From contig JBFGJY010000005.1 of assembly GCA_041576975.1 (NCBI GenBank), forward strand, positions 1 through 62,658: a stretch of 62,658 bases of DNA, written 5' to 3'. Made by a program: the position numbers and the translations under genes. Positions 518 through 58,778 of this stretch are shown here, in pieces. This stretch comes from Gammaproteobacteria bacterium (GTDB lineage Bacteria > Pseudomonadota > Gammaproteobacteria > UBA4575). Under the pieces are notes generated by a model. That model was not told the DNA's origin and did no database searches. It was given only the letters and a program-made list of their open reading frames with translations. Each line of letters begins with the position of its first letter. Positions within the stretch are counted from its first letter, which is position 1.

Positions 518-546
518 AGTGTCCACTTTTGCCGCAAGCAGACACT
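518..546. repeat. Palindromic cassette-boundary site R1
   Basis: AGTGTCCACTT-TTGCCGC-AAGCAGACACT; 11-bp imperfect inverted arms. Confidence 0.75.
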
Positions 547-573
547 CAGCCCTGTAAGCATATGACTAGAAGC

Positions 574-601
574 AAACATGGTTAGAATAACAACCATGTT
601 T
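574..601. promoter_or_regulatory. Perfect inverted repeat, probable operator of the ICMT-family gene
   Basis: AAACATGGTT-AGAATAAC-AACCATGTTT overlapping a TAGAAT -10-like hexamer, ~30 bp before the ATG at 630. Confidence 0.5.
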
Positions 602-629
602 ATTAATAGCTCAGACCATTAATGGGCCG

Positions 630-1328
630 ATGAGTACCCAGGATATAAAATCTACAATTCGATTACTCATCGCATTCATAGCGGGCCTTGGACTCTTCAC
701 TGCAATTATCTTCTGGCCTGCAGGAAGAATTGACTGGGTAGAAGGGTGGCTTTACTTGGTAATTATCACTGCGTATCTAATGATCAGTACTTTTTACCTC
801 AAGCGTGTGAATCCAACGCTTATCGAACATAGACTACAAGTACGGTTTGGTGAAGGTACGAAACGCTGGGATAAGATATGGTCTGTAACCTTCGCCCCAT
901 TATTTTTTGCAATCTATGTGATCGCAGGGTTTGATGCAGTCCGTTTTGAATGGTCAAACATGTCACCCTGGTTATGGCCACTGGGGTTTGTTCTTTTCAT
1001 ACCGAGTTTGGCACTAATCACTTGGTCCATGGGGGTCAACCCCTTTTTTGAGAGGACAGTGCGAATACAAACTGAGCGAGGACATCATGTGATTGATAAC
1101 GGCCCGTATAGGTTTGTTCGCCACCCCGGGTACTTGGGGTTCTTTGGCTGGAGCCTAACCACTCCTCTACTGCTGGGTTCGTGGTGGGCTTTTCTTCCCG
1201 CCTTGCTGTCAATTATTGGAATTATGATTCGAACAGCTTTGGAAGATCGGACACTTCGTGAAGAACTGACTAGATACGAAGAATATACAAGCCGAGTTCA
1301 TTTCAGGCTGATCCCTGGTATTTGGTAA
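630..1328 (+). CDS. Isoprenylcysteine carboxyl methyltransferase (ICMT/PEMT) family membrane protein
   Basis: Multiple TM helices; NPFF..TVRIQ.ERGH.VI..GPYRFVRHPGY and EDRTL..EL..Y.EY..RV..RLIPGIW motifs. Confidence 0.85.
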   Translation: MSTQDIKSTIRLLIAFIAGLGLFTAIIFWPAGRIDWVEGWLYLVIITAYLMISTFYLKRVNPTLIEHRLQVRFGEGTKRWDKIWSVTFAPLFFAIYVIAGFDAVRFEWSNMSPWLWPLGFVLFIPSLALITWSMGVNPFFERTVRIQTERGHHVIDNGPYRFVRHPGYLGFFGWSLTTPLLLGSWWAFLPALLSIIGIMIRTALEDRTLREELTRYEEYTSRVHFRLIPGIW

Positions 1329-1445
1329 CAGCAACGAGAAATTGATGTATCAAACATTGCGAAATCATAAGAACCTGTTTATTAATATTTAGTCAATGCT
1401 AAACCATGCGCTTAAACAAGATGCAATCAATTAACTCATACATAC

Positions 1446-1474
1446 AATGACCATTCTGGCCGTAAGCAGACATT
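1446..1474. repeat. Palindromic cassette-boundary site R2
   Basis: AATGACCATTC-TGGCCGT-AAGCAGACATT. Confidence 0.75.
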
Positions 1475-1588
1475 GCATTTAATAATTGGAGTTTAAAAAA
1501 AATTTAATATAAAAACTTTGGAGGAGACCTATAATCGATCAATAAACAGACGACAACCGGATCTGGTGGGGCTGTTTACAATTTATGC

Positions 1589-1699
1589 TTATATGCATTT
1601 GAACGTGAAGTAAAAGAAAGTCAGGCTGGTATATGGAAGTTACCAGACAAGGAAAGAGTAAAGCCGTGGGAATAGAGGAAAGAGAAAAGAGGTGGATGA
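1589..1699 (+). pseudogene. Thermonuclease (SNase-like) C-terminal remnant
   Basis: LYAFEREVKESQAGIWKLPDKERVKPWE*RKEKRGG resembles the SNase tail E..AR....GLW.....PWEWR, with an in-frame TAG at 1673-1675; no intact 5' part. Confidence 0.4.
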
Positions 1700-1756
1700 G
1701 ATTCTTGACAAAGAAAAATAAAAAAAGCTGGAAACAAGTAATAAGTATTATATATT

Positions 1757-1885
1757 TCAGTCAATTACTCCTATTGCTGTAAGTACAATTCCAATGATCC
1801 CTACTAGCACTGTAATCGCTAACACTACCCAAACTATTTTAATTAGGGGATGTTGACCTTTATCTTCTCTCTCATCTTCACTCAT
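1757..1885 (-). CDS. Small single-TM protein (42 aa)
   Basis: MSEDEREDKGQHPLIKIVWVVLAITVLVGIIGIVLTAIGVID with AAGGA RBS; below the ORF-track cutoff. Confidence 0.5.
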   Translation of the reverse strand: MSEDEREDKGQHPLIKIVWVVLAITVLVGIIGIVLTAIGVID

Positions 1886-1930
1886 TGTAATTTCCTTTGC
1901 TTTATACTCCCTTCGATGAATACTTATCTA

Positions 1931-2359
1931 TTACCACTCGCTAAGTACAGCAGTAGGGTTTTTCATTTTACTCTTGCAAGGCTCAAGATGTTTGCTCATT
2001 AAAATAGATGAGTTGCTATAATCTCCTTCGATTTCTTTGTCCATATCATCTAGTTCCAGTTTAAATTTCTCGAGTGTAACTTTTTCTGCCATCTCTTCAG
2101 TACGTGTTTCTTCGGCATAAACTAATGCATATCGTAATGCATGTTCTTTAAGATCATTCATTTTAATAGCGTGCTCAGCAGCATCTGGGCCTTCGGTTCT
2201 TTTTGCAGCTTCACCAAGTACAGCATAAAAGCTGGCGCAGGTAACAAATTCATTAGATGCATTATTAAATGCCTTTCCCATTGCACTATCCGGATCAATA
2301 TCTCCTGCATAGGTATAAAAAGGGCACAAAAATATAGTTATTTGAAATAATTTTTTCAT
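1931..2359 (-). CDS. Hypothetical exported protein
   Basis: Signal peptide; two Cys in the mature helical domain. Confidence 0.6.
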   Translation of the reverse strand: MKKLFQITIFLCPFYTYAGDIDPDSAMGKAFNNASNEFVTCASFYAVLGEAAKRTEGPDAAEHAIKMNDLKEHALRYALVYAEETRTEEMAEKVTLEKFKLELDDMDKEIEGDYSNSSILMSKHLEPCKSKMKNPTAVLSEW

Positions 2360-2497
2360 GGCTTCAACAAAAGCGTATACCCAGAAATATGCAGAAGAGA
2401 TTGTTTTAGATCAATAAATTATTAGTTGCATGCAATATTCTTGAATGACTCTAGGAAATTCTTCGCTATTAGCTAGTATAATTCAGGTGTGATAAGA

Positions 2498-2848
2498 ATG
2501 AATAAACTCCTACTTTTCATTTTACTATTTTATATTGGTGTTATCCACGCTGAATCGAGCGGAAGAACCGGAAACGACCTACTGCAAGAATGCCTTGAAT
2601 GGAAAAAAATGTATGAGCATGGCACATCTAACCCAAATGTTGCCTATCAAGCAGGTGAGTGTGTTGCCTACATACAAGGCATTGCTGACTCTTTATATGT
2701 TCAAAAAAGATATTGCCCTGGCAGATCAATATATACACAAAGAACAAGGGCTGTTATTGAGTATTTAGAAAACAATCCAGCAGCACTTGATGAGGATAAA
2801 ATGCAGCTAACAATAACTGCGCTAGTTTCAGCTTTTCCCTGCAAATGA
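2498..2848 (+). CDS. Rap1a/Tai-family immunity-like protein
   Basis: Signal peptide, TGNDLL..C, C.AYIQGI.D, YCP, V.EYL.NNP, AL..AFPC pattern. Confidence 0.75.
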   Translation: MNKLLLFILLFYIGVIHAESSGRTGNDLLQECLEWKKMYEHGTSNPNVAYQAGECVAYIQGIADSLYVQKRYCPGRSIYTQRTRAVIEYLENNPAALDEDKMQLTITALVSAFPCK

Positions 2849-2907
2849 AAAAAACTTATAACATTAATTTTAATTTTAATTGTAATGCCGTATTTTAATA
2901 CAATCTA

Positions 2908-3171
2908 ATGCGCATTATTCAATCCTTTGAAGATTTAGATTTATTAGAACAACTGCAACCGCTTTGCACAGACTGCGGCCACCGTGGCAACGTGGTCGAT
3001 GAACAGTACCTCACACAAAATAAATTACTAATCACAGATATATTGCATAACCTCAAATGCAATCAATGCGGCAGTAAGGATGTAACGTTAAAACTATTGT
3101 CTAATGCTGCGATGCCACAATTAGACAAATCAAATGTTGCGTTTTTTTCGGATAATTTGAGGACGTTATGA
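2908..3171 (+). CDS. Small Zn-ribbon hypothetical protein
   Basis: CTDC...CNQCG Cys pairs; stop codon abuts R3. Confidence 0.5.
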   Translation: MRIIQSFEDLDLLEQLQPLCTDCGHRGNVVDEQYLTQNKLLITDILHNLKCNQCGSKDVTLKLLSNAAMPQLDKSNVAFFSDNLRTL

Positions 3172-3200
3172 ATGCTCGCTATCGACCCAAAGCGCATATT
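3171..3200. repeat. Palindromic cassette-boundary site R3
   Basis: AATGCTCGCTA-TCGACCCA-AAGCGCATATT. Confidence 0.75.
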
Positions 3201-3234
3201 AACTAGAACACAATATTAAGTAAGTTTGAAAAGT

Positions 3235-3687
3235 ATGAAATGGTTGAGTTTAATAGTCTGCATAGCACTATGTCTATGTGCAGGATATATTGGGTCCTTG
3301 TTTAGTCCCGGAGATTGGTACCAAACTCTCGCAAAATCTTCCTTAACTCCTCCAAATATTGTATTTCCTATTGTCTGGAATATTCTATTCATTCTCATGG
3401 GTTTGGCCGCATGGCGTATTTGGAATAGGCATTTACAAGGTAAAAACTTTGCATTATTACTGTTTATCATACAGCTAGGTTTAAATATTCTATGGTCATT
3501 TTTGTTTTTTGGACTACAAAGACCGGATTTAGCTCTTATTGAAATCGTTGTTCTTTGGACTGCAATTTTAGCTACTGTAATCGCTTTTTTTAAGATAGAC
3601 AAATTAGCAGGGGTACTATTATTGCCTTATATAGGTTGGGTTAGCTTTGCAATATACCTTAATTATTCTATTTATAATTTGAATTAG
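3235..3687 (+). CDS. tspO: TspO/MBR tryptophan-rich sensory protein
   Basis: WY..L.K....PPN.VF..VW..L, QL.LN..WS.LFFG, LLPY..WV.FA.YLN. Confidence 0.92.
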   Translation: MKWLSLIVCIALCLCAGYIGSLFSPGDWYQTLAKSSLTPPNIVFPIVWNILFILMGLAAWRIWNRHLQGKNFALLLFIIQLGLNILWSFLFFGLQRPDLALIEIVVLWTAILATVIAFFKIDKLAGVLLLPYIGWVSFAIYLNYSIYNLN

Positions 3688-3720
3688 TATTAATACCTCA
3701 GGTTAACTTAAGAAATCATA

Positions 3721-3750
3721 AATGACCGCTAACGACCCAAAGCGAAAATG
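3721..3750. repeat. Palindromic cassette-boundary site R4
   Basis: AATGACCGCTA-ACGACCCA-AAGCGAAAATG. Confidence 0.75.
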
Positions 3751-3809
3751 CAAATATAAACATCAATTTTTAGCATGTATAATTTTATAGATTCTTAGAA
3801 AATACAATT

Positions 3810-4442
3810 ATGTCTAACCCTAAAAAATTGCCAGACCACAGCATTGAGGCATCTGGTCTTAAATCTGAAGTTGACTCAAACCAGTGTGAAAAATTAAAAA
3901 AACAATATGGGTTTAATGTAGACTTTAATCTTTTTGGTTATTTGCTCGATGCAGTATTATGGTACAAGTCGCACAAAGACATACAAGCTAAAAGATCAGT
4001 TACAGAACAAATCACTTTATTGGATGAGCTTGGTGAACGATCTAATTCGCTTCTTGAATGTTTTGATAAATTAGGATATGAGGAAAGAGGTAAAATTATA
4101 GATAGATTTGGTACACATCTAGATTTAGAAGATATACGATATAAGCTAAACGCGCTCTCTATGCACTCGCCAATAATAGCTAAAGAGCTTAAAGAAAATG
4201 TATCTAAAGATAGTAAAGAAAATAACCCACTTAAAAATTTTTTATCACGTTTAGCGATAATCTATGAACTTGGAACAAAGTGTAAGCCAAAATGTCATTA
4301 TGATGATGCAAATACTAAATACTCTGGTGATTTTTTAGAATTTACTTCTGAAGTATTAAATGAAATTAATGAAGTGCATTCAAATAGTGCAATTGGACAA
4401 GTTATTATTGAAGTCTTAAAGATCCATAAAGTAAGTAAGTAG
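3810..4442 (+). CDS. Hypothetical protein (island/phage-like)
   Basis: 210-aa AT-rich ORF next to the tRNA 3' end; no recognised motif. Confidence 0.55.
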   Translation: MSNPKKLPDHSIEASGLKSEVDSNQCEKLKKQYGFNVDFNLFGYLLDAVLWYKSHKDIQAKRSVTEQITLLDELGERSNSLLECFDKLGYEERGKIIDRFGTHLDLEDIRYKLNALSMHSPIIAKELKENVSKDSKENNPLKNFLSRLAIIYELGTKCKPKCHYDDANTKYSGDFLEFTSEVLNEINEVHSNSAIGQVIIEVLKIHKVSK

Positions 4443-4643
4443 ACTTTAACAATGTCAAATTTCCCCTACATCAAATTCTTTTCTTTTAAAGCTAAAATTG
4501 TCAACGCTCCAAACCCTCTACAACCCACTCCCTCTCATGCTTAAATATCTTTGTTGTATCCTCTAGAGAAATTGCGCACGCACGTAGGATTTAATTACAA
4601 GTAATTAGAATTAGTCGAAAGTCATATAACTTGTTGATATAAC

Positions 4644-4720
4644 TGGTCGGAGTGAGAGGATTTGAACCTCCGACCCCTGCCTCCCGAAGACAGTGCTCTA
4701 CCAAGCTGAGCTACACTCCG
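4644..4720 (-). tRNA. tRNA-Pro(CGG)
   Basis: CGGAGTGTAGCTCAGCTTGGTAGAGCACTGTCTTCGGGAGGCAGGGGTCGGAGGTTCAAATCCTCTCACTCCGACCA; cloverleaf, anticodon CGG, encoded CCA. Confidence 0.97.
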
Positions 4721-4737
4721 ATTAATGAGTTACTTAT

Positions 4738-5706
4738 TTATGAGATCCGGGAAATTGCAAACTCTGTTAATTCTATCAGTGCGTCACGATACTGATTATT
4801 GGGCAATTTTTCGATATGTTGCTTCGCAATTTGTGCTTGTTTGCTTGCTGCATTTTCAGTGTATGTTATAGCCCCAGTTGATTCAATTGCAGCCATAATC
4901 TCATCCATATGTCGTTTGCCACCATTGATAATTGCATCACGTATTACTTCCGCCGTTGCGCCATTGCTGTTCTTCAATGCGTAGATTAATGGCAAAGTAG
5001 GTTTGCCTTCTGCCAAATCATCACCTATGTTTTTACCCGTTTCCTCTGGAGAAGACAGGTAATCTAAAACGTCATCCTTAAGTTGAAATGCAGTACCAAT
5101 ATGTATTCCATAGCCAGCGCATGCGCTTTCGATTTCTTGTGATTGTTTAGCAAGCACAGCGCCAAGCTGACATGCGGCTTCGAATAGTTTCGCAGTTTTT
5201 GATTTAATCACGGTCATGTAGCGATCTTCCGTAGTATCGGGGTCGTTACAATTTAATAATTGCATCACTTCACCTTCGGCAATGGTATTTGAGGCACGTG
5301 CCAAAATTTCCATTACACGCATCTCACCCACATCTACCATCATTTCAAAAGAACGCGAAAACACAAAGTCCCCGACAAGTACGCTGGACTCGTTGCCCCA
5401 AATCGAATTTGCCGTCTCATGTCCACGCCGCAAATTGGAATCATCCACTACATCATCATGCAGTAATGTCGCGGTGTGTATAAATTCGATAATGGCAGCA
5501 ACCAGTGAATGCTTGTCGCCCGTATATCCACAAGCCTTAGAGCACAATAAGGCCAGTAGGGGGCGTAACCGCTTGCCTCCACTGTCAATTATATAATTGG
5601 CCATTTGACTAATCAGGGTGACATCGGAATGCAAGTATTGTCGGATAACGGCATTGACACCCTCCATGTCTTTAGCTGCCAAATTTTGTACGTCCTTGAA
5701 ATTCAT
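4738..5706 (-). CDS. ispB: Octaprenyl-diphosphate synthase
   Basis: GGKRLRP, HDDVVD and DDVLD motifs; divergent from rplU. Confidence 0.95.
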   Translation of the reverse strand: MNFKDVQNLAAKDMEGVNAVIRQYLHSDVTLISQMANYIIDSGGKRLRPLLALLCSKACGYTGDKHSLVAAIIEFIHTATLLHDDVVDDSNLRRGHETANSIWGNESSVLVGDFVFSRSFEMMVDVGEMRVMEILARASNTIAEGEVMQLLNCNDPDTTEDRYMTVIKSKTAKLFEAACQLGAVLAKQSQEIESACAGYGIHIGTAFQLKDDVLDYLSSPEETGKNIGDDLAEGKPTLPLIYALKNSNGATAEVIRDAIINGGKRHMDEIMAAIESTGAITYTENAASKQAQIAKQHIEKLPNNQYRDALIELTEFAISRIS

Positions 5707-6442: not shown

Positions 6443-8633
<2,191 letters not shown>

Positions 8634-16148: not shown

Positions 16149-16151
16149 ATT

Positions 16152-45263: not shown

Positions 45264-45311
45264 AGAAATTCCGCACACAAAGCTTTAAGCGATTTGTAAA
45301 TATCTGCTCTC

Positions 45312-45776: not shown

Positions 45777-45784
45777 TGTAATTT

Positions 45785-46798: not shown

Positions 46799-46813
46799 TG
46801 AAAATATACAAGT

Positions 46814-47272: not shown

Positions 47273-47296
47273 GAGCTTAAAAATGAACCTTGAAAT

Positions 47297-48253: not shown

Positions 48254-48311
48254 CCAACGCAAGTAAGAATAAACTTACTGAAGGTTTTTTTCTTTAAGCA
48301 AGAAGTGTCTA

Positions 48312-48341
48312 AATATCTGCTTACGGCCAAAAGCGGCCATT
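48312..48341. repeat. Palindromic cassette-boundary site R5 (left end of respiratory island)
   Basis: AATATCTGCTT-ACGGCCAA-AAGCGGCCATT; its reverse complement closely matches R2. Confidence 0.8.
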
Positions 48342-48360
48342 CCGGAAAATTTGCTGTAAG

Positions 48361-49026: not shown

Positions 49027-49028
49027 TC

Positions 49029-51170
49029 CTAAACTTTCTTTTGCCGCAAGAAAGGCACCGGTGTAAGTGCGGTCTGTCGATGCATTGCCGTCCCACTGGA
49101 GCCGTCTACTTCACGAGCTGCGATCAGGGAATTAATGACCACCACCATGCTCGACCCTGCCATTAAGGCGGCAGCAATAACGGGCAAGAGCAATCCTGCG
49201 GCTGCCAACGACAGGGCCACTAAGTTGTAACTCAAAGCCCAGATCAAATTTGTCCAAACCGTCTTTTGCACCCGCCTCGCGAGTATGATCAACCACGGTA
49301 GCCTTTCGAGTGCAGCCTCCGACAAGGTCACATCCGCACTAGCGCGTGCCAGGTCCGTGGCATTACCCACAGCAACGCCTATACTTGCCTTGGCCAATAC
49401 AGGTCCATCATTGATTCCATCACCAACCATGGCCACGGGCCCATGCTGCCGTGTCCATTCGCCGAGTGTCTCGACCTTTTGCAGTGGCAGCAGACCACCT
49501 TGCCATTCTTGAACGCCTGCTTGCTTGGCACTTTGCTCAACAACTACTGGATCGTCCCCGCTGATCAAATAAGTACGCAATCCTGCAGCGTGTAGGGCTT
49601 CGATCATTGGCGGTACCTGTGGATCTAAGGCCTCTGTTAATTCAAACGCTCCATGTACCGACCCATGCCAACCGATGTAGACGATTGAATGATTGCCAGG
49701 TACGTAGCTGATATTAAGGGTTGTCGGCACAGTCCATCCAAGGGAGTGCATGAGATCTAGCGAGCCCATCGCCACAAAAATCTCGGCTAGCTTGGCACTA
49801 ACCCCCATGCCGGCATGCGCCTGAAATTCGGTAACGGGGAGAGGGGTGATAGCTCGCTGTTTTGCAGTTTGCAAAATCGCTGCGGCCTTTGGGTGCGAAA
49901 AGCCTTGTGCCAAGCTTGCGGCACGCTCTAACACCACCCGATTTTCATGCGGTACAGTGACGAGCTTGGCTACTGCCAAGGAATGCGCTGTCAAGGTGCC
50001 TGTTTTGTCAAAGGCCACACCCTTCAGTCGAGCAAGATATTCAAATACCCCGCCTTCGCGCAATATAATCCCATGTTGTGCCGCTTGGCCCAGGCCGATG
50101 GCCGTGGCCAATGGAGCCGCCAAGCCGAGAGCACAAGGACATGCGACGACCAACACTGCCATGCCGGACAGTAAGGCCTGCTCAAATGAGGTGTGCTGAC
50201 TCCAATAATAGACAGTGCCGATTCCAAGCATGAGCACTGCGAATACAAATACGGCAGACACTCGATCCACCAGCCTTCCCACTAGAGTTTTATGCGCCAA
50301 GGTCTGCCTAATTTGACGGCTCATTCGTACCCAATAGGTATCCTGACCTGAGACTGTGGTGCGGATCAGCAATTGCCCGTGTCGATTGACACTTCCAGCA
50401 TAGACTGCTGAGCCAGGTTGTTTTTCTGTATTGGTACTTTGGCCGGTTAGAATTTCTTCATTGCAACTGGAGTGTCCCTCGACCACCACACCGTCTACCG
50501 GAATGCGTTCGCCTGGTGGTACCCGCACCAGGGTATTGGCAGCGATGGCAACGATAGGCTGTTCACGTTCTTGATGATTCTCGATTACCGTCGCGATTGC
50601 ACGTTCGGCCTCTAGCAGGGGCATTAAACTGCGTGTGGTGCGCACGCGGGCCTGTGCCTCTAGGTATCGCCCAACCGTAAACAACACCACGACCATCGTC
50701 GCGGTATCAAAATAAACGACCTCACCACCCGTCAAGATCTGCAACACGGAGTAGCCGTAAGCCCCTAAAGTGCCCACACTTACCAATGTATCGGCGTTGG
50801 CTTGACATTGCCTGGCTGCCTCCCAGGCACCGCGAATAAATGGCCCACCCACAAAGAACACCACAGGCGTAGCGAGTATCCATAGCAGAATATGGATCCC
50901 TTGCAATAATGAAGCGCTCAGGGTACTTACCGACTCGGAGTACAGCATCAAGCTAAACAGCATGATGTTCATTGCCAGAAAAGCGCCAATGCCCAAACGA
51001 ATCAGCAGCCATGCCGCGACGGGTTCTTCGCGGCTACCGTGCTTGACCAAATAAGCCAGGCAACAGCCATAACAACAAAACACTTGTACCTCGCCATTGA
51101 CCTCGCGTCGTTGAACATAGCTGCGCACCGGTAGCTGACAATGCGTACACAATGCGGAGTTGTCTGTCAT
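49029..51170 (-). CDS. ccoI: Cu-translocating P1B-type ATPase (CcoI/FixI-like)
   Basis: CTHC..FCCYGC N-terminus, CPC, DKTGT, GDGINDGP, YN; ATG overlaps the upstream stop. Confidence 0.8.
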   Translation of the reverse strand: MTDNSALCTHCQLPVRSYVQRREVNGEVQVFCCYGCCLAYLVKHGSREEPVAAWLLIRLGIGAFLAMNIMLFSLMLYSESVSTLSASLLQGIHILLWILATPVVFFVGGPFIRGAWEAARQCQANADTLVSVGTLGAYGYSVLQILTGGEVVYFDTATMVVVLFTVGRYLEAQARVRTTRSLMPLLEAERAIATVIENHQEREQPIVAIAANTLVRVPPGERIPVDGVVVEGHSSCNEEILTGQSTNTEKQPGSAVYAGSVNRHGQLLIRTTVSGQDTYWVRMSRQIRQTLAHKTLVGRLVDRVSAVFVFAVLMLGIGTVYYWSQHTSFEQALLSGMAVLVVACPCALGLAAPLATAIGLGQAAQHGIILREGGVFEYLARLKGVAFDKTGTLTAHSLAVAKLVTVPHENRVVLERAASLAQGFSHPKAAAILQTAKQRAITPLPVTEFQAHAGMGVSAKLAEIFVAMGSLDLMHSLGWTVPTTLNISYVPGNHSIVYIGWHGSVHGAFELTEALDPQVPPMIEALHAAGLRTYLISGDDPVVVEQSAKQAGVQEWQGGLLPLQKVETLGEWTRQHGPVAMVGDGINDGPVLAKASIGVAVGNATDLARASADVTLSEAALERLPWLIILARRVQKTVWTNLIWALSYNLVALSLAAAGLLLPVIAAALMAGSSMVVVINSLIAAREVDGSSGTAMHRQTALTPVPFLRQKKV

Positions 51171-51940
51171 AGAGGATGGGTATGCAGCGCCAGAGGCAAT
51201 GCGCCGCGCGTAATCGTAATAATGCCAAGTAATAAAATAAATGCCCCACAGATGCGCAGGCCATAAAGGCGCCAACTGGCTTGTAACCAGTTGCTGCTAT
51301 GTTCCCTACCTAATTGAACCAAGGGGACGGTTTGCACTTGTGCAGCTTGCGTTCGAATATGAAATATCGCACCCACACCCCCCATGGCCAACATTGCTGC
51401 CAAGGTACCCAGACCAAATACCGCCATGGTGAGAATGCCGGGTAGAGTTCCACCGCTTGCCGCAGCCTGTGCAGCAAAAGCATATACCAGGGGACAGGGC
51501 AAAAAGCCATTTAGTACCCCAAATGCCAATGGCGCAAGTGGACTTGGGTGTTTAAGCAGATCGCGCAATGCCTGGGAAAGAATTTGGCTGCCCAAACCGT
51601 TGAGTGCATGCTGTTTGGTTGTGGCGAAGCCAAAGAATTGCATTCCTACCAAAATCATCAATGCGCCGGAAACAGTTGCCAATACCCGTTGGGCAATTAC
51701 CGACGGTGTGCCTTCTAAGCTATGCATAAACTGCATACCAAGAAAACCAACCAGGCCGCCGATAAAACAATAAGTGGTGACTCTGCCAAGGTTATATATA
51801 AGGTGTCGTCGTAGCGTCGCGGTAGGTCCGCGCACATCCGGGCCAAGTGCACAAGCAAAGCCCCCACACATGCCTATGCAGTGTAGACTACCAGCCACAC
51901 CGGCGATAAAGATCAACAAGTATGGTGTGAAGTAAGCCAT
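51167..51940 (-). CDS. DsbD_2/TauE-like cbb3 assembly membrane protein
   Basis: SLHCIGMCGG, YNLGR, LNGFLPCPLVY, FGLGT. Confidence 0.85.
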   Translation of the reverse strand: MAYFTPYLLIFIAGVAGSLHCIGMCGGFACALGPDVRGPTATLRRHLIYNLGRVTTYCFIGGLVGFLGMQFMHSLEGTPSVIAQRVLATVSGALMILVGMQFFGFATTKQHALNGLGSQILSQALRDLLKHPSPLAPLAFGVLNGFLPCPLVYAFAAQAAASGGTLPGILTMAVFGLGTLAAMLAMGGVGAIFHIRTQAAQVQTVPLVQLGREHSSNWLQASWRLYGLRICGAFILLLGIITITRGALPLALHTHPL

Positions 51941-52066
51941 TCTGTATCGAGTATCGTAGCCTGGCTGGGGCGTAGCGTGACCCAAGATTGCAGCGTTATA
52001 TTCCTAGCTTCAATTGTATTTACTGTGGGCATGCACAATTTATTTGATTGCCAGGCTCTATAGAAA

Positions 52067-52159
52067 CTATTTTGAGAACATCAGGTACAGCACCCACAAA
52101 AAGAAGCCTACTGTGGAGACGATAAAGATTCCAAAGCCTATGCTTTCATTCATGGTCAT
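52067..52159 (-). CDS. 30-aa single-TM peptide (CcoQ-like)
   Basis: MTMNESIGFGIFIVSTVGFFLWVLYLMFSK after a perfect AGGAGG RBS. Confidence 0.55.
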   Translation of the reverse strand: MTMNESIGFGIFIVSTVGFFLWVLYLMFSK

Positions 52160-52170
52160 GCAGACCTCCT

Positions 52171-52281
52171 TTAGGGTAACTGTATGGCAGGGATCATTTG
52201 TCCAAATATATTTAGACTAAGCTCGCTGACAAGGAAAAGTATGTTGAGTGCTGCCAGTAGCAATAAGATTCGTTCGGCCAT
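52171..52281 (-). CDS. 36-aa hydrophobic peptide
   Basis: MAERILLLLAALNILFLVSELSLNIFGQMIPAIQLP after AGGAGG RBS. Confidence 0.5.
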   Translation of the reverse strand: MAERILLLLAALNILFLVSELSLNIFGQMIPAIQLP

Positions 52282-52291
52282 GATTACCTCC

Positions 52292-52501
52292 TTAATAACT
52301 CAGTCCGGGGCCCAAGCCCCCCCAGTACGTGAAACCGTAGTACAGTGCCCATACAAACATCACTATATAAACGATTATCAGCCAGACGTTGATACGCCCA
52401 TGACGCGCCTCGATGTGACCATCGCCATACTTTTCGGTTTGTTGATGATGGGGCAATGTTTCATTCTGCTCTGAAGAAGTCTTATCTGGATTCTGGCTCA
52501 T
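52292..52501 (-). CDS. Small membrane protein resembling the CcoP N-terminal anchor
   Basis: YGDGHIEARHGRINVWLIIVY...WALYY; no haem motif. Confidence 0.55.
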   Translation of the reverse strand: MSQNPDKTSSEQNETLPHHQQTEKYGDGHIEARHGRINVWLIIVYIVMFVWALYYGFTYWGGLGPGLSY

Positions 52502-52649
52502 CGTCTACTACCTCCGCACGGTACGCGCGATATTTAATGTCTTCGACATCGTTAAACATTCCTGATAATACGGCCCAAATAAATACACACACTGCACCCA
52601 GGCACATGAATACCGCCACCAAAAATTGTAAAAAGGTGAGTTCAATCAT
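52482..52649 (-). CDS. ccoS: CcoS/FixS-like maturation protein (55 aa)
   Basis: Hand-translated MIELTFLQ...FIWAVLSGMFNDVEDIKYR..DD, matching WA..SG.F.D.E. Confidence 0.7.
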   Translation of the reverse strand: MIELTFLQFLVAVFMCLGAVCVFIWAVLSGMFNDVEDIKYRAYRAEVVDDEPESR

Positions 52650-54396
52650 TACTCGCTCCCATGGTTTGTGGTATCAACATTTCATCTTCGATGTTGTGCA
52701 ATTCGCCAGCCTGTGCTGTCGGTACTATTTCAATGCCATGTTTACTGGCCCAGGCCTCACCGGCATAATAAGAATATTCGGTGTCTGCGGCGTCACCCAT
52801 TGGTTGATAGGCATAGTGTGACTCGGTGGCCTTGAGTGCCGGATGATTCAAGGCCGCACGGTCGACACTAGAAATTTTCAGCGGCTTGCCGGTAAGCGGG
52901 TCCTTAAATGCTGACAATGAGAGTACGTAATACGATAAAGCCCAACGATCTTCCTCGGATTGCGTATCGGCGTAAGACGGCATTGGTGTTCCACTTAAGC
53001 CGTTGCTCATGGTGCGATAGATATCTTTAACCGAAGGGCCAGATTTGAATTGACCCGTAGTCAGGTCCGCCGGTCGAATTGGATAACCGAAGTCGTCTTC
53101 GAGTTCGGCCGCCTTCTCACCATCGCCCTTACCGGTATCGCCATGACATTCCCAGCATTTGGCCTCTTGCCAAACATCTTTTCCATGCGCCACGATCTCA
53201 GCCGAGGGTGTCGGTGCCTCACCGATAAATATCGGTGGCTCAATCGGTTCTTCAACAAAATAAAAATACGGGTAATCTGGATCGCTCTTGTCTACGGCAA
53301 GTTCATATTTAATGTATTGAACCACTGCGAGGCGATCTTTTTCCTGCAGGTTATGCCAGGTCGGCATGGCCGAGCCACGTACTCCGCGTGACAGTGTGCG
53401 TAGTAAATCACCGTCGGTAGGCAAGGACCCTGATGGCGTGAGGTGGAATTTGAACACGCCGAGGGTAAAGTCGCGGGGTCGAAATTCCGTCATAAAGGTG
53501 GCTGCTGGGCCGTTACCATTTCCAGTTTCACCGTGGCAGCCTAGGCAGCGTCGTCGGTAAACTTCTTTTCCATAATCAACCCATTCCTCGGAACGTGGAA
53601 TCGAACCTTGCATTGCCCCCACCAATTGTGGCTCGAATCGATCTCGCCATTTGCCACGATTAGTACCGAGCTTTTGCAAATAGGCCACCAAAGCCTTTAG
53701 TTCCTCAGTAACGGCGATCAGCTCAACTTTGTCCCCGGTATACTCATCATTAGGAGTGAAGATAATCGGGTATTTGCCGCGTTCCTTAACATAGGTCAGA
53801 CCCTCAGCATTGGGGGTGAGCAAGATAGTTTCTTGGCTAGTGAAGTCGAATAGCTTCTTAGTTTCTTCATTTGCAGCAAGTGTCTTATTGCCGGTTTCAT
53901 CTGTGACGATCTCGGCAACATAGGGCCCCTCAAAGTAGTAGGCAAATCGCGGCATGATGGAGTCGGGAGAAATCATGCGTGGGTCCCAAAAATGGGCAAT
54001 GTGCCATTCGTCGCTATATTTCAATCCTACCCGCGAGAGATCTGGTCCGATTCGGCGCGTTGAAAATAGATGCGGTTGGTCATACGCATACTCACCGGAC
54101 TGGGTTACTGGCCCCCAGCGACGGGTCTCGCCAGTTACTGGGCGCACGAATTGCGAGTGACAAAACCAACAGCCATCACGGATATACAAGCGCCGACCGT
54201 GCGCCTCAAGTTCGGTATAATCAGTAGCCTCGTCTTCCATCCACTTTAGTTCACCAAGGTCAGTGCGTACTACCTTAGTAATTTTAGTGGTAGTCGATTC
54301 CGGTTCCAACCAGGGCAACAGACCTTGAGTAAACACCGCCAGAAAAAAGAACCCCACACCCGCAATCAAGCTTACATTACGGGCAGTCATGTTCAT
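52642..54396 (-). CDS. CcoO-like subunit fused to two further cytochrome c domains (trihaem)
   Basis: GRRLYIRDGCWFCHSQFVRP, RRIGPDL, SIMP; plus CLGCH and CWECH. Confidence 0.85.
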   Translation of the reverse strand: MNMTARNVSLIAGVGFFFLAVFTQGLLPWLEPESTTTKITKVVRTDLGELKWMEDEATDYTELEAHGRRLYIRDGCWFCHSQFVRPVTGETRRWGPVTQSGEYAYDQPHLFSTRRIGPDLSRVGLKYSDEWHIAHFWDPRMISPDSIMPRFAYYFEGPYVAEIVTDETGNKTLAANEETKKLFDFTSQETILLTPNAEGLTYVKERGKYPIIFTPNDEYTGDKVELIAVTEELKALVAYLQKLGTNRGKWRDRFEPQLVGAMQGSIPRSEEWVDYGKEVYRRRCLGCHGETGNGNGPAATFMTEFRPRDFTLGVFKFHLTPSGSLPTDGDLLRTLSRGVRGSAMPTWHNLQEKDRLAVVQYIKYELAVDKSDPDYPYFYFVEEPIEPPIFIGEAPTPSAEIVAHGKDVWQEAKCWECHGDTGKGDGEKAAELEDDFGYPIRPADLTTGQFKSGPSVKDIYRTMSNGLSGTPMPSYADTQSEEDRWALSYYVLSLSAFKDPLTGKPLKISSVDRAALNHPALKATESHYAYQPMGDAADTEYSYYAGEAWASKHGIEIVPTAQAGELHNIEDEMLIPQTMGASND

Positions 54397-55823
54397 GACG
54401 TTACTCCTTGCGTGGCCACATCCAGCCCAGGGTGGGTCTCTGTTCTGGCCGGCTTAATCGCCGTTAAGGCAAAATTAACGACCAATAAGGTCATGCCCAA
54501 GTCCATCAAGATGCCGGCCACGGTACGCACCAGCCAGTAGGGTCGGACCGCGACTATGGTATCTAGCCACTCGGTACCGGCCATCCACATATAGCCTTGC
54601 TGTAACCCAAGGGCGGTCAGGTCTAGTCCCATCAAAGTGATACCAAAAGTGATCAACCAAAACGACCAATTGCCCATACGAAATGACCACAACGGCTTGC
54701 CTAATAAACGCGGTAGTACATATACCGTTCCGCCAATGGCCCATACCACGAAAGTGCCAAACACCGTCAAGTGCGAGTGTGAGATAACAAAGTCGGTAAA
54801 GTGTGTGGGTTGTTGAATTGCGCGCAGCGCCTCGGTGGAGCCTTGAAAACAACCGACAAGATACATGAGTGACCCCATGATCAGAAACTTTGCCGTTAGA
54901 TTTTGACTAAAGGTATTCCATCTACCGATCATGGTGCCGAAGAAGTTTTGCAGCACCGTCCATACCGGAATGATCAACAGCATGGAAGTAATGATGGCCA
55001 GCGTCTCGGCCCAATCCGCAATCGGACTATATAGATAATGGTGGATGCCTACAAAAGGATAAAATAGTGCCAACGACCAAAATCCGACTAAGGACAACTT
55101 ATGGCTATAGATGGGATTTCTGACGCTGGCGGGTAAAAAATAGTAGATCAGCACATAACCTGCCGGGGTGATCCACAGCCCCACGATGTAATGAATAAAT
55201 AACCCGTGGAAGGCGGCGCTGTTAATGCCAGAGATAGTATAAGGTAAAATAAAACTGCCGAGGATCAGATTCAGCACCGTCCATATGAAGGCCGCCAGCA
55301 AATACCATAGTGCGACGTACAGTTGTGGTTCCTTACGCCGGCCGATGGTGATTACAAACTGAACAGTCGCTAGAGTGACGACTGTGAAGATGATGCTGTC
55401 CGTCAACAATGGAAACTCCCCGGCCTCCAATGCTTGTGCATGGCCCATCACCATTAATGCTATTCCCAACAATAGATTCAGGTTCCATACCCATACCAGC
55501 CAGTGGCCCCAATGCCCATTCCAGATGCGCACCCCACATAAGCGCGGCACCAGGTAATAGCACAAGCCGATAAATAGCGTGGAAAAGGCACCGAAGATCA
55601 CACCATTGACATGCAAGGGGCGTAAGCGCCCAAAGGTGAGATATTCGGAGGTGCCCAGATAGTCGGGATAGTTAAACAGGCTGGAGATAGCCGCACCGAT
55701 AGAAGGGGTAAACATCAACCAAAACAGGCCCCAATATAGCCATTTACGTACTAAGGCAAAATCGACCAATTCATCTAAGTCGGGGCGAGCATCTTCAGCT
55801 GGGCGCGTGATTGCATCAGACAT
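54393..55823 (-). CDS. ccoN: Divergent cbb3-type (family C) haem-copper oxidase subunit I
   Basis: FGRLRPLH, IHYIVG, YPFVGIHH, HFTDFVISHSH: six His ligands and helix-VII Tyr present. Confidence 0.85.
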   Translation of the reverse strand: MSDAITRPAEDARPDLDELVDFALVRKWLYWGLFWLMFTPSIGAAISSLFNYPDYLGTSEYLTFGRLRPLHVNGVIFGAFSTLFIGLCYYLVPRLCGVRIWNGHWGHWLVWVWNLNLLLGIALMVMGHAQALEAGEFPLLTDSIIFTVVTLATVQFVITIGRRKEPQLYVALWYLLAAFIWTVLNLILGSFILPYTISGINSAAFHGLFIHYIVGLWITPAGYVLIYYFLPASVRNPIYSHKLSLVGFWSLALFYPFVGIHHYLYSPIADWAETLAIITSMLLIIPVWTVLQNFFGTMIGRWNTFSQNLTAKFLIMGSLMYLVGCFQGSTEALRAIQQPTHFTDFVISHSHLTVFGTFVVWAIGGTVYVLPRLLGKPLWSFRMGNWSFWLITFGITLMGLDLTALGLQQGYMWMAGTEWLDTIVAVRPYWLVRTVAGILMDLGMTLLVVNFALTAIKPARTETHPGLDVATQGVTS

Positions 55824-55919
55824 GTACTACGACCTCTCTTTTTATATCATCACGCACATTTTATGCGCGTGACATTTTTTATTTTTTACCGCCGTTTTGT
55901 ATGCTTTAAACCAGAAAAC

Positions 55920-56375
55920 TTAGTGGACTCCTGGAGTTAACGGTGAATCTCGATTAGAGTGATAGATATACGCCTCTAATGCCTTCATCGCAGCGCTATC
56001 CGATTCAATTTTTATTCCCTGATTCGGCTTTTCAATGCACCAGTTAATCATGTCACGCAATGTCGCGAATTCATTCATCTGTTCTTGAAACTTAGGAAAT
56101 TCATGCGGGTGCACATCAGCGGAATTAGGATGACACATGGCACACGCCATGCCTGTTTCACTAAGCGTCACACCAAATTCCTTTTCTGTAGCGGGGTCAC
56201 CGTGAAATAGCAAGTCACCTTTATTCACATTTTCCATGTATACCTCATGAAACGCTTGTAGTGTTTCAGCATCGTGTTCTTTTTTATGTGCAAGAGCCCA
56301 AGTCGTTGCAACGATAGCGAACACAAAAATAAAACCCGTTATCACTCTTACCCATCGATTATCAGTTTTATTCAT
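55920..56375 (-). CDS. Monohaem cytochrome c, SoxA/TsdA-like domain
   Basis: CAMCH plus LRDMINWCIEKPNQG..ALEAYI (candidate Cys ligand). Confidence 0.7.
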   Translation of the reverse strand: MNKTDNRWVRVITGFIFVFAIVATTWALAHKKEHDAETLQAFHEVYMENVNKGDLLFHGDPATEKEFGVTLSETGMACAMCHPNSADVHPHEFPKFQEQMNEFATLRDMINWCIEKPNQGIKIESDSAAMKALEAYIYHSNRDSPLTPGVH

Positions 56376-56458
56376 AACTATTCCCTCCTAAGGGAAGCAG
56401 TTTGTTTTTCACAAACTTATTTATCTTTTTTATCTCTATCTATGGCTAGAATTATTGA

Positions 56459-57607
56459 CTAGTACGGCCACATATTATCTGCGGTACGGCCATGTAAGTT
56501 TTGCGTCGGATTATCGCCAGTACCCGAATCAACCGCCTTGTTTGCAAACACTTTACCTTCACGTTCATTCCACATCATGTATTGGTGTTCAAAACTACCG
56601 TCAGCGTTTGCAGTCATTTTGTCCCAACCGAGACCATCAAAGTGATCGCCGATATCTACACGAATCATCGGTGTGGTTAATGCAGGTACGCCTTCAGGGG
56701 CATATGGCCAAGGCCATGAAGTAGCCAGCATGCCAATGAATTTCATGTTGCCAATTTCGTTATAAAGCACCTGGTGAGTATGACCATGGAAATTGGTAAC
56801 ATTATTATGCGTCTGTAAAATCTCATGCACTTCCCGCCAATCACGCACCCAAAAATTCCAAGGTGGATAGTATTGATAGAGTGGGTTATGACTGAAGATC
56901 ACTAGCGGTTTATCTTTTGGCCAGTCTGAAATCGCATCTTGTAGCCATTTAAGTTGATTATGCCCAAGACCTGCCCAAGGACCCGCCACTGTGCCATCCA
57001 GGGCCTCCATATGCCCCATGCGCTCTTTGGCCGTCATCTTTTTGGCCGACCAATAATCGGGTGCAAAACCAACGGTGTTTAAGCCTACAAAGCGCACACC
57101 TTTATGATCAAACTTCCAGGGACTGCCGCCAAAGTGTTTTTCCCATTTTTTACCCATGTCCAGATACCAATCGTGTTCACCTGGAATAAACACCTTTTTA
57201 ATTTTAATTTCTTTAAGCAATTCAACACCTAGATCAATTTCTACCGGATCGCCCTTTTGCGCAAGATCACCGCCAAATAGCACAAAGTCTGCAGCTGGTT
57301 TCATACCTTGAACTTCTTGAAATGCCCTTACAGTTTTCTCTACGAAACGCGTATTCAAAGCTCTGGGATACAGATGGGTATCTGAAATCCAGGCAAATTT
57401 GAAGGATTCAGTTGCCGCTGAAGCTACATCAATGGTGTTGAGTAGTGGGAACCAACCAGCGGCGGCTACACCCGCAGCAGTGCCTGCCGCTAAGGATCGG
57501 TTTAAAAAAATCCGCCGAGTAATTTTAAAACTTTTATCGATGCCTTTCTCTGCCTCACGTAACGCGCATTCCTTTTCACGTTGTTCTTGTTTGCTAGGTT
57601 TTTTCAT
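56459..57607 (-). CDS. Tat-exported calcineurin-like metallophosphoesterase
   Basis: TRRIFL twin-Arg signal; SDTH, GGDL, GEHD, SH, GHTH. Confidence 0.85.
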   Translation of the reverse strand: MKKPSKQEQREKECALREAEKGIDKSFKITRRIFLNRSLAAGTAAGVAAAGWFPLLNTIDVASAATESFKFAWISDTHLYPRALNTRFVEKTVRAFQEVQGMKPAADFVLFGGDLAQKGDPVEIDLGVELLKEIKIKKVFIPGEHDWYLDMGKKWEKHFGGSPWKFDHKGVRFVGLNTVGFAPDYWSAKKMTAKERMGHMEALDGTVAGPWAGLGHNQLKWLQDAISDWPKDKPLVIFSHNPLYQYYPPWNFWVRDWREVHEILQTHNNVTNFHGHTHQVLYNEIGNMKFIGMLATSWPWPYAPEGVPALTTPMIRVDIGDHFDGLGWDKMTANADGSFEHQYMMWNEREGKVFANKAVDSGTGDNPTQNLHGRTADNMWPY

Positions 57608-57658
57608 TTGATTCCTCCGCGTTCTTGCGTCATATCTATTTAGTTATTATTAAAATAA

Positions 57659-58420
57659 TTATTTTTTCAGTTCGAGAGATAGCTCTGTGGTTTCGCCTTC
57701 TTTCACACTTACAGAAACTTCTATTGGTCCGGTATATTCTTGCGTGGCTATTAAGGTGTAGTCCCCGGGTGGCACATCCGTTAAGGAAAAGCTGCCATCT
57801 TCAGTCGTTAAAGTGTAATAAGGGCTGTCTGCTACATAGACCCAACCTAGCATCCAACCATGCGCATCACAATCAACACGAACTTTGCCAGGACGTTTTA
57901 ATTGCTTGGTTATGCTGTCGCCTTTATTTGGCAGTGCTAAGTTAAATGCCGTGCGTTTACCATAATACCCATGTGTGTTATGCAAAATAGGATCTTCATT
58001 GATAATTTCAATATCACCTGCGCGTACAACTTGCACATGAGGCTCGAAGATGCAGTCTTTATTAGAGATATATGGTGGTTCTTTTGGCGCTTCCCACGCT
58101 TTGCCTTTAGCAACTTTTTTCAAGTAGACAACTGCGTCTTGCACGCCTTTATTTTCATCAACTAAAATTTTTGCTTCATCACGAATGCCGCCACAGATTT
58201 TTTTGTCTTTTGTGGGAATCACTTTCTTCTTAGGCACACTCCCTTGATAAGTTACTTTGCCACTAATGGTGCCGCCATTAGCAACTTCTATTTCTTCATA
58301 GGCTTGAACTGAAAGACCAATACTGAGCAGGAATAAAATACAAATGGCGTGGAAGATTGCACGAGGGAACTTCATCGGTAGTTGCTCTGCATGTTTTGGG
58401 TTATACATGTCTTTTATCAA
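57659..58420 (-). CDS. Exported cupredoxin-like protein with carboxypeptidase-regulatory-like domain (start uncertain)
   Basis: HNTH and CDAHGWM type-1 Cu-like ligands; DGSFSLTDVPPGDY. Confidence 0.75.
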   Translation of the reverse strand: MIKDMYNPKHAEQLPMKFPRAIFHAICILFLLSIGLSVQAYEEIEVANGGTISGKVTYQGSVPKKKVIPTKDKKICGGIRDEAKILVDENKGVQDAVVYLKKVAKGKAWEAPKEPPYISNKDCIFEPHVQVVRAGDIEIINEDPILHNTHGYYGKRTAFNLALPNKGDSITKQLKRPGKVRVDCDAHGWMLGWVYVADSPYYTLTTEDGSFSLTDVPPGDYTLIATQEYTGPIEVSVSVKEGETTELSLELKK

Positions 58421-58646
58421 CCTTATTCTTAATTTTTAGATTTATTCTATATTTAAACTAAGTCTAAGTATTTGCAAATTTAATGTGCTTATTTCTGGAA
58501 TAAGTTGAATTGATAAATTTATAAAGCAAATTTATTCCAACAAACTCAGTATTAAAGTTAAGCAGCAGAATTATTGTATTTTTTATCAGCCATCGCACAC
58601 CACATTAATTAGGTTTAACGTTCTGAAATCTTATAGGTTATAAGAT

Positions 58647-58691
58647 TAATTTAGACAAAGTCTAAATTATTTGATTTAAATCAATTCTAAA
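58647..58691. promoter_or_regulatory. FNR box plus TTTAGAC-N3-GTCTAAA palindrome
   Basis: TTGAT-TTAA-ATCAA at 58671-58684; TAATTTAGAC-AAA-GTCTAAATTA at 58647-58669. Confidence 0.65.
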
Positions 58692-58748
58692 TTAAGAAAT
58701 TTTTTTTGTTGATTTTTTATTGAAAAAAACCAGGTCTTAATTATTCCG

Positions 58749-58778
58749 AATGTCCACTTTGAGTTGAAAGCGGTAATA
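58749..58778. repeat. Palindromic cassette-boundary site R6 (right end of respiratory island)
   Basis: AATGTCCACTT-TGAGTTGA-AAGCGGTAATA. Confidence 0.72.

Follow-up and report, generated by a model that had tools for sequence, protein, structure and literature searches.

The question raised by this locus is what a set of six imperfect palindromes does at the edges of accessory genes. The window, i.e., the whole stretch of DNA that was analyzed, is the 62,658-nt contig C5 (JBFGJY010000005.1) of a gammaproteobacterium of the UBA4575 lineage, the genome of which (coded G000) comprises 2.73 Mb in 135 contigs with 39.6% G+C. A preliminary description had proposed that the six sites, R1 to R6, each with two arms around a short spacer, bracket foreign gene modules and are acted upon in trans by a tyrosine recombinase. 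The six sites are worn, degenerate members of a far larger hairpin family, which marks the ends of inserted accessory genes and gene arrays and looks like a cassette system without a known integrase. That the hairpin sites are the two ends of mobile gene units is the reading that we favor, with a confidence only a little above even.

The Sites of the Window and the Genome-Wide Family

All six palindromes are present in the window at the positions reported for them, and the exact consensus reported with them has no match there. In a scan for the arm consensus, in which up to 5 mismatches over 22 arm positions and spacers of 6–9 nt were allowed, contig C5 yields just R1 to R6, with 4, 5, 5, 5, 3, and 4 mismatches and spacers of 7, 7, 8, 8, 8, and 8 nt, respectively, where about 0.1 matches per 62.7 kb would be expected by chance. 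Genome-wide the same scan gives 205 matches as opposed to 7, 5, and 2 in three shuffled versions of the whole 2.73-Mb sequence, and 157 as opposed to 1, 0, and 0 when at most 4 mismatches are allowed. A 34-nt weight matrix (at least 7 bits) retrieves 261 copies from the genome and 3 from a shuffled genome. The earlier suggestion that the sites form a family found where accessory DNA begins and ends is supported. At 0 bits or more the matrix finds five matches in the window, every one at a site noted before; R1 is missed because its spacer is one base short. Folded as single strands the six window copies do no better than shuffled sequences (z -0.01 to -1.9), and well-kept copies elsewhere reach -5.4 and -13.3 kcal/mol (z -3.9 and -6.5). 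The sites of the window are listed here by the two forms of the element, A and B, which are described below; A' is A in the opposite orientation.

518 to 547, plus strand: R1, degenerate B-type site with a spacer one base short (7 nt), upstream of the ICMT gene; 4 of 22 arm positions mismatched
1446 to 1475, plus strand: R2, degenerate B-type site with a 7-nt spacer (one base lost), downstream of the ICMT gene; matrix score 3.6
3171 to 3200, minus strand: R3, A-type site, A' in the sense of tspO; 31.5 bits
3721 to 3750, minus strand: R4, A-type site (A' in gene sense), between tspO and the open reading frame (ORF) at 3810–4442; 36.8 bits
48312 to 48341, minus strand: R5, B-type site at the 3' end of the oxidase island; 44.3 bits
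58749 to 58778, plus strand: R6, degenerate A-type site, A' upstream of the minus-strand island genes, at the 5' end of the island; 31.6 bits
58779 to 58815, plus strand: degenerate linker beside R6 (..ATTTGTTTCCAGCACC), resembling the linker core by eye, unscored

The loop of R1, TTGCCGC, resembles the B loop TTGGCCGA, and the start of R3 is overlapped by the TGA stop of the ORF at 2908–3171. The linker beside R6 corresponds, in a comparison made by eye and unscored, to the core TTCCAACC (reverse complement GGTTGGAA) that accompanies A sites elsewhere. The three pairs of sites differ from one another, R1 and R2 both being B-type and R3 and R4 both A', and only R5 and R6 frame a complete A'...B unit.

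Structure of the Element and of the Unit

Copies were oriented by their asymmetric center and then sorted into two types. The element is 34 nt long and occurs either as type A, tG-AATGTCCGCTT-TGGGTCGT-TAGCGGTCATT-C, with the loop TGGGTCGT, or as type B, tG-AATGWCCGCTT-TTGGCCGA-AAGCRGACATT-C, with the loop TTGGCCGA. The stems are imperfect in a conserved manner: of 96 type-A copies, 60 have T.T at one position and 55 have it at a second, C.A is found in 64 of 126 type-B copies, and the variable C/T and G/A positions of the arms show no covariation. The stems are therefore not simply selected for pairing, and the sequence pattern points to an element that may be read by a protein rather than to a hairpin kept for RNA stability.

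Close pairs of sites in G000 have the arrangement A-linker-B in 25 of 26 cases, with linkers that contain TTCCAACC and measure mostly 24–25 or 49 nt; in the genus coded g6 the linkers measure 39 nt. The length from GGTTGG to A' is constant and the variable stretch lies between B and GGTTGG, and the border between units is therefore placed there, so that a unit reads GGTTGGAA..A' - cargo - B. The orientation of a site follows the gene upstream of it, type A being opposite to that gene in 50 cases and the same in 7, and type B the same in 43 and opposite in 23; in the sense of the gene one consequently reads B or A' after it, and the doublet becomes B-linker-A'. Among the 74 ORFs that have a site on both sides, A' upstream combined with B downstream is the commonest arrangement (25), and no other combination exceeds 9.

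Nearly all copies are intergenic (250 of 261, vs. about 18% for random positions) and they are enriched at the 3' ends of genes, with 61 in convergent and 33 in divergent spacers where random positions favor divergent ones. These figures are what a repeat akin to the repetitive extragenic palindromes (REPs) and bacterial interspersed mosaic elements (BIMEs) would give, and this is the main rival explanation, as it accounts for the size, number, and position of the copies. The hairpins would then themselves be the selfish or structural unit; they would have spread into the spacers after genes, where they may stabilize or end transcripts, would have piled up in dispensable DNA, and as near-identical copies would seed the breakpoints of ordinary recombination, so that genes come to look like cassettes. 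An imperfect palindrome of 34 nt in hundreds of copies, two types in fixed doublets like the Y and Z REPs of BIMEs, and an orientation that follows the upstream gene all agree with it. The conserved stem mismatches and the missing covariation do not, and neither does the distribution over the genome, in which 72 of the 135 contigs (1.16 Mb) and the core stretches of the window carry no copy while the arrays are saturated. REPs are, moreover, known as species-specific elements, whereas among the matches listed the same 28-mer is kept in genomes of 34 to 74% G+C from several classes and one other phylum. With the evidence from conserved loci and from the enzyme search given below, we regard such a repeat as a doubtful explanation, if one to be taken seriously.

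Arrays and Their Cargo

The copies are concentrated in dense arrays. Contig C61 has 18 sites in 15.4 kb and contigs C89, C95, C96, C116, and C118 have about 1 site per kb; in these contigs one site or doublet separates almost every pair of neighboring genes. The cargo consists of unrelated single genes, encoding an SDR protein, a solute-binding protein, Sel1, a nuclease, polysaccharide deacetylase, GDSL lipase, globin, glyoxalase, DUF454, HIT, CBS, and cyclase proteins, along with many ORFs without a Pfam match, and it resembles the usual content of cassette arrays. The genes of the C61 array are scattered over the chromosomes of relatives. Parts of this array are contained in 20 of 24 listed runs of public reads, which come from 12 studies.

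A basic ORF of 80–81 amino acids (MTNTPERNDSKK...) occurs in six copies in G000 (C95:1112–1805, C2:327–1104, C109:1847–2089, and C113:654–896). Four of these lie on the small array-rich contigs C95, C109, and C113, but no hairpin is closer than 400 bp to any of the six.

Presence and Absence at Conserved Loci

Within the window the case in point is the insertion framed by R5 and R6. The larger features on which the comparison depends are as follows.

1 to 4640, no strand assigned: decayed cassette array with ICMT, three small ORFs, tspO, and an ORF of 210 amino acids; contains R1 to R4 and abuts tRNA-Pro
4644 to 4720, minus strand: tRNA-Pro(CGG), where the mosaic array gives way to the conserved core
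48255 to 59060, minus strand: cbb3-type oxidase island of eight genes, inserted; its flanks are adjacent in three relatives
Genes of the island, minus strand: SCO1, P-type ATPase, DsbD_2, FixO/cytochrome c fusion, COX1, cytochrome c, metallophosphoesterase, and CarboxypepD_reg protein

When the window from 43 to 62.7 kb was searched against five relatives, the blocks 43001–48254 and 59051–61643 were found to be conserved in all five. In three of them the island is absent and the flanks are contiguous, with gaps of 112 bp in G004, 63 bp in G005, and 65 bp in G022; in G013 the flanks are 670 bp apart and in G008 they enclose a different insert of 7.7 kb. Since the flanking blocks are adjacent in three relatives, the 10.8 kb in G000 is an insertion. 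Its G+C content is 48–52% over 48–56 kb as compared to 39.6% for the genome, A' (R6) stands upstream of its first gene, and B (R5) stands at its 3' end, beginning about 20 nt past the stop of the last gene (SCO1/SenC, 48361–49026, minus strand). The empty loci of G004, G005, G022, and G013 contain no match to the weight matrix even at 0 bits or more.

The claim that the pairs of sites enclose accessory DNA thus holds for R5 and R6, and R1 to R4 belong to a 4.6-kb mosaic of single genes. Within 1–4640 the genes, among them ICMT (630–1328, PF04140) and tspO (3226–3687, PF03073), each match different and scattered places in relatives, and synteny with all five relatives begins at 4636–4759, i.e., at tRNA-Pro. 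This segment looks like an old, decayed array. As had been noted for the window, no copy lies between its housekeeping genes: there is no match from 4.7 to 48.2 kb, a stretch in which synteny with relatives was checked for 4.6–9.0 and 43.0–48.25 kb (as it was for 59.05–61.6 kb beyond the island).

Within that match-free stretch, at 16000–39000, are three tandem paralogous sets of minus-strand genes, with 46–49% G+C at 18–24 kb. Each set encodes a protein of 1157–1314 amino acids, pilin-like proteins of 135–146 amino acids with a prepilin-type N-terminus, and proteins of 166–190 amino acids, and the sets look like triplicated type IV pilus tip and minor-pilin modules.

Whole arrays come and go in the same manner as the island. 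After nuoN, G022 has a 16-kb array of about 25 cassettes with 41 sites in 26 junctions; 40 of the 41 sites have one polarity and 22 of the 24 ORFs of at least 70 amino acids are co-oriented. The array opens with linker-like sequence and A' and closes with B, and is followed by a tRNA and a conserved run of genes, read from gene sizes as rimP-nusA-infB. G005 (nuoN 88% identical), G019, G004, and G000 have the same gene run without the array, the tRNA following nuoN directly in G005 and G019. These four array-free loci contain no match of 7 bits or more, and none is visible in the spacers of G005 and G019. After pth-ychF, seven cassettes are found in G005, one in G019, and none in G022, G013, and G000; G004 has one weak B-type match there (15 bits). 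Co-oriented ORFs, each with one site after it, likewise make up an array of G005 (7 of 7 ORFs) and that of contig C61 in G000.

Three observations concern the surroundings of these arrays. At the right edge of the nuoN array (G022:C1) the last part of the neighboring tRNA gene, 21 nt from its 3' end, is repeated about 190 bp from the full gene. Such a partial copy betrays a former integration event at this tRNA, one independent of the hairpin array. Close to each edge of the array there is also a possible direct repeat, imperfect in sequence (TATTGGTTK..). Just past the ychF array (G005:C1:237693–242000) is a large RHS-repeat gene (>1436 amino acids; RHS_repeat, DUF6531).

A cassette can also be followed between genera. 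G000 and G004, which belong to different genera, have in common a cyclase cassette with 83% identity over 1.44 kb, the homology of which starts at the upstream B-linker-A' and stops at the downstream hairpin; as a yardstick, the core gene ychF of G005 is 73% identical to its copies in G000 and G004. Arrays with one junction per gene, the presence and absence of arrays, and a cross-genus cassette ending at hairpins lend the cassette idea of the preliminary description much more support than could be seen from the window.

The same loci bear on two of the rivals. Against the spread of hairpins as a REP-like repeat, no gain or loss of hairpins alone was seen: at each of the three loci under comparison genes and hairpins were either both present or both missing, and no hairpin stood in an empty locus. 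The second rival is the model first proposed, that an 11-8-11 double-strand core site is used for capture and excision in the manner of pdif modules, by an Xer-like recombinase or an unlinked integrase acting in trans. The geometry fits, as two 11-bp arms surround an asymmetric 8-bp center and copies of high G+C content can also be read as 11-6-11, and two types of center would give two classes of sites that do not cross. The comparison does not support this model, however, since the empty loci hold neither a residual nor a hybrid site with which recombination could take place. The ends must instead have traveled with the insert, like the ends of a transposon, and this argues against recombination with a pre-existing chromosomal target. 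In addition the ends of a unit differ in type (A' and B), so that a single recombinase event between them is not expected if the centers must match. Together with the results on recombinases given below, this makes a double-strand site of this kind improbable.

Occurrence in Other Genomes

Type A (at most 2 mismatches) was found in 13 of 41 related genomes and a reversed control in none; the complete genome G004 has 104 copies. When genomes were sampled evenly across the class, 8 of 401 contained a related pattern (control 0). An exact-match scan of species genomes gave at least 119 stretches in gamma-, beta-, and alphaproteobacteria and in one Nitrospinaceae metagenome-assembled genome (MAG). 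The last of these, from another phylum, has one single unit, A'-ORF-ORF-B. In these genomes, too, the copies are clustered: Caulobacter sp. 17J80-11 has 34, about twenty of them inside 25 kb, and a Sphingomicrobium MAG has 59. Cultured carriers among the matches listed include Caulobacter sp. 17J80-11, Lysobacter soli, Noviluteimonas species, Sphingomonas daechungensis, and Polynucleobacter meluiroseus.

No description of the repeat was found in the literature, which was searched by full text for pieces of the sequence and for cassette, palindrome, and integron-like topics, supplements not being covered. Translations of similar palindromes may be present among spurious alphaproteobacterial ORFs, which we do not count as evidence. 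Two other functions were considered and dropped. A DNA uptake signal in inverted pairs does not agree with a conserved loop, with copies clustered in accessory DNA, or with a sequence that spans several classes, and a peptide read through the hairpin (ATG...) was abandoned as the frame does not run into the downstream ORF in one hand-checked case.

Search for an Enzyme

The recombinases of G000 in the families searched are XerC, XerD, one integron integrase, one P4-type integrase, and one Y1_Tnp homolog; no serine recombinase or resolvase and no multi-copy transposase was found in this genome. The tyrosine recombinases are on contigs C27, C2, C29, and C63 and the Y1 transposase homolog is on C13, i.e., all are on other contigs, in line with the earlier remark that the window encodes no recombinase. 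Nor is the acting factor encoded beside the sites. When 2,056 ORFs within 3 kb of hairpins, from 119 loci among the matches listed, were clustered, no gene recurred, the largest family being an acyl-CoA synthetase-like one at 4 loci. Two large ORFs between the opposed sub-arrays at the center of the Caulobacter array turned out to be histidine kinases and not a recombinase.

XerC and XerD are present in every genome, which would suit a double-strand core site. The G000 dif site is, on the other hand, canonical and unlike the hairpin arms; it lies at C52:1229–1256 (GGTACGCATAATATATATTATGTAAAAT) and is the sole match in the genome at up to 6 mismatches. In G004 several tyrosine recombinase genes abut hairpin sites, and another such neighbor was seen in a UBA2675 MAG. 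Those of G004 were rejected as a general partner as they belong to several unrelated subfamilies and have no ortholog in G000, and the P4-type integrase on C63 was likewise rejected. At G004:C1:1248000–1258600 short hairpin arrays are interspersed with three tyrosine-recombinase-like genes of 375–379 amino acids, of which two share 47% identity, and the first of these genes diverges from its array, as an integron integrase would.

The Y1_Tnp family (PF01797) was detected in 4 of 13 carrier relatives vs. 13 of 28 non-carriers and in none of 3 multi-copy distant carriers; divergent HUH enzymes lie outside the reach of this search. The cognate transposase of REPs, a member of this family, hence does not co-occur with the hairpins, although a REP-like repeat needs no linked enzyme.

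The integron integrase deserves separate treatment. G000 has a classic chromosomal integron at C29:1–8018, with intI at 6942–8018 (integrase 7056–7997; TIGR02249, 483 bits, cut-off 265), and a third rival takes B-linker-A' for a non-canonical, homogenized attC of a sedentary chromosomal integron, the arrays without an integrase being clusters of attC sites lacking integron-integrases nearby (CALINs). The hairpin arrays do look like cassette arrays, the junction of 95–120 nt is close to the size of a long attC, and in the fold predicted for the junction of genus g6 the outer arms of B and A' pair with each other. That fold, though, reaches z values no better than -2.3 to -2.5 and is in competition with the two local hairpins. 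The ten small minus-strand ORFs that diverge from intI on C29 and run off the contig end have different spacers and no hairpin site. Only 2 of 13 carrier relatives (G000 and G015) and 1 of 5 distant carriers have an integron integrase that scores above the cut-off, and this enzyme was rejected as a general partner. Finally the ends read AATGWCCGC ... GCGGACATT and have no RYYYAAC/GTTRRRY boxes (the box consensus being that of the preliminary description); the sites are, as had been stated, neither dif nor integron attC. We consider a disguised attC very unlikely.

A Possible Mechanism and What Weighs Against It

The reading of the hairpin sites as ends of mobile gene units rests on four things that were observed: where the borders fall, the polarity of the sites, insertions that occupy a conserved locus in some genomes and not in others, and a cassette shared by two genera. 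In the sense of its genes a unit would begin at the left with a GGTTGGAA-type motif, about 20–28 nt, then the hairpin A' (AATGWCCGCTAACGACCCAAAGCGGACATT), carry a cargo of one to eight genes, and end at the right with the hairpin B (AATGWCCGCTWTTGGCCGAAAGCRGWCATT). On this reading units enter intergenic DNA without a prior site, bringing both ends along, and further units stack head to tail into an array with a B-linker-A' junction (95–120 bp) after every gene. Old units then decay, as R1–R4 and R6 have done in the window.

It is tempting to speculate that a trans-acting enzyme reads the ends as folded single strands, as is done in the IS200/IS605 family and at integron attC sites. Similar but non-identical hairpins on one strand at both ends and conserved stem mismatches point to this, as do a motif at fixed distance outside the left hairpin and the lack of a site in empty loci, and a classic double-strand core site of a tyrosine recombinase fits less well. 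We nevertheless hold this part of the scheme to be speculative, and clearly less probable than the mobility of the units as such. The enzymes that usually carry out such a reaction were missing.

A number of findings weigh against mobile units. The polarity rule is only statistical, since 49 of the 74 doubly flanked ORFs show combinations other than A' upstream with B downstream. The hairpin after the cyclase gene is B in G000 but A' in G004, a difference in type that would suit a REP-like repeat. The insertion between R5 and R6 is about 330 bp longer than its A'...B unit, so that its ends are imprecise, and no target duplication or exact end could be fixed for it. No co-occurring enzyme was found among the tyrosine, Y1, and serine recombinase families searched in G000, a genome with about 260 sites. 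No vehicle was found either, with no match in 2.9 million viral contigs and one marginal match in 72,556 plasmids, and this leaves the passage of the element between classes unexplained. No excision product or circle was seen in reads, the contigs of which are too short and end at hairpins: the four runs compared with the C61 array consist of low-depth short contigs broken at each hairpin, and the shorter side of the joints listed is 20–33 letters, i.e., the repeat itself, with the exception of one skip of 450 nt (60–69 letters). These joints give no sign of excision or of rearrangement, and array parts without coverage count as no evidence. Finally, the orientation of sites in G000 agrees with GC skew in 68% of cases and that of genes in 67%; as the skew of the sites is no stronger than that of the genes, it lends no separate support to a replication-coupled mechanism. 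The type-A copies of G004 change strand at about 0.29 and about 1.8–1.9 Mb. Nearly all copies between about 1.94 Mb and, across the start, about 0.28 Mb are on the plus strand, and those between about 0.30 and 1.81 Mb are on the minus strand, with a dense mixed cluster at 1.78–1.81 Mb; this replichore-like switch is inseparable from gene orientation.

Implications

It is conceivable, although we would put it below an even chance, that Proteobacteria and at least one Nitrospinaceae MAG harbor a second, integrase-independent platform for gene capture, in which each unit has a conserved pair of 30-nt hairpins as its caps, intergenic DNA without any site serves as the target, and dozens of units may accumulate in one array, and in which a trans-acting enzyme of an unrecognized family, or a co-opted host enzyme, reads the folded ends. 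Mobile gene cassettes are already known in kind; there is a fair chance that the machinery here is new. If the units are mobile, a large share of the accessory genes in these lineages moves by an undescribed route, involving in G000 about 260 ends and the whole cbb3 oxidase cluster, and software that looks for IntI and attC would overlook such arrays. The conserved 28-mer could then serve directly as a probe, both to detect arrays in metagenomes and to find the enzyme, and the several cultured carriers make mobility directly testable.

Comparison with Known Systems

The nearest published parallel that we found is the DUF1874 motif (Weinberg et al., 2017; PMC5737381). It is a conserved structured motif of multiple stems that occurs in consecutive intergenic regions, usually in 5' UTRs; the authors suggested that it might be an attC of an unusual kind, although the array did not end in an integrase. 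It is nevertheless a different motif, as three of our arrays (L001, L002, and L127) have no match in Rfam 15 at E <=1; at gathering score the only Rfam match of the window is a tRNA.

The pdif modules of Acinetobacter plasmids are similar in that short modules lie between sites of about 28–30 bp made of arms and a center, with the recombinase encoded outside the module. They differ in that the arms described here are unrelated to dif, that the elements are chromosomal and not plasmid-borne, and that the flanking sites differ in type and share one polarity instead of being inverted copies.

REPs and BIMEs with their REP-associated tyrosine transposases (RAYTs) share with the hairpins the size, copy number, intergenic position at 3' ends, and the two types in fixed doublets. 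They are set apart by the strong clustering of the hairpins in accessory arrays, core DNA being sampled here by one window, by the absence of a cognate RAYT, by the occurrence of the same sequence in alpha-, beta-, and gammaproteobacteria, and by gain and loss together with genes in the loci compared.

The IS200/IS605 elements and their derivatives of the palindrome-associated transposable element (PATE) type seem to share with the units described here two similar subterminal hairpins on the same strand and the lack of a usual terminal inverted repeat, a motif at fixed distance outside the left hairpin, clean empty sites, and conserved stem mismatches. Most carriers of the hairpins, however, are without a Y1 transposase, and the cargo consists of ordinary genes and not of tnpA or tnpB. 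Head-to-tail arrays are, to our knowledge, not a habit of the IS200/IS605 family.

Integrons are, as far as we know, the only well-understood builder of arrays of single-gene cassettes, and their study rests on the integrase and the structure of attC. As in integrons, the genes of the hairpin arrays point in one direction, are mostly single and unrelated, and often have no known function, and a structured repeat of about 100 nt comes after each. Close relatives differ in whether a given locus holds an array, and mismatches in the stems are conserved. The attC site is known to be conserved in structure only, while the hairpin repeat is conserved in sequence across classes and consists of two separate 30-nt hairpins and a linker without R boxes. 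Units also occur singly, with both ends, in spacers that were formerly free of sites, and most carriers are without an integron integrase, a Y1 transposase, or a serine recombinase. The genomic picture is thus the same as that of integrons, and it is associated with a different, sequence-conserved structure of the ends.

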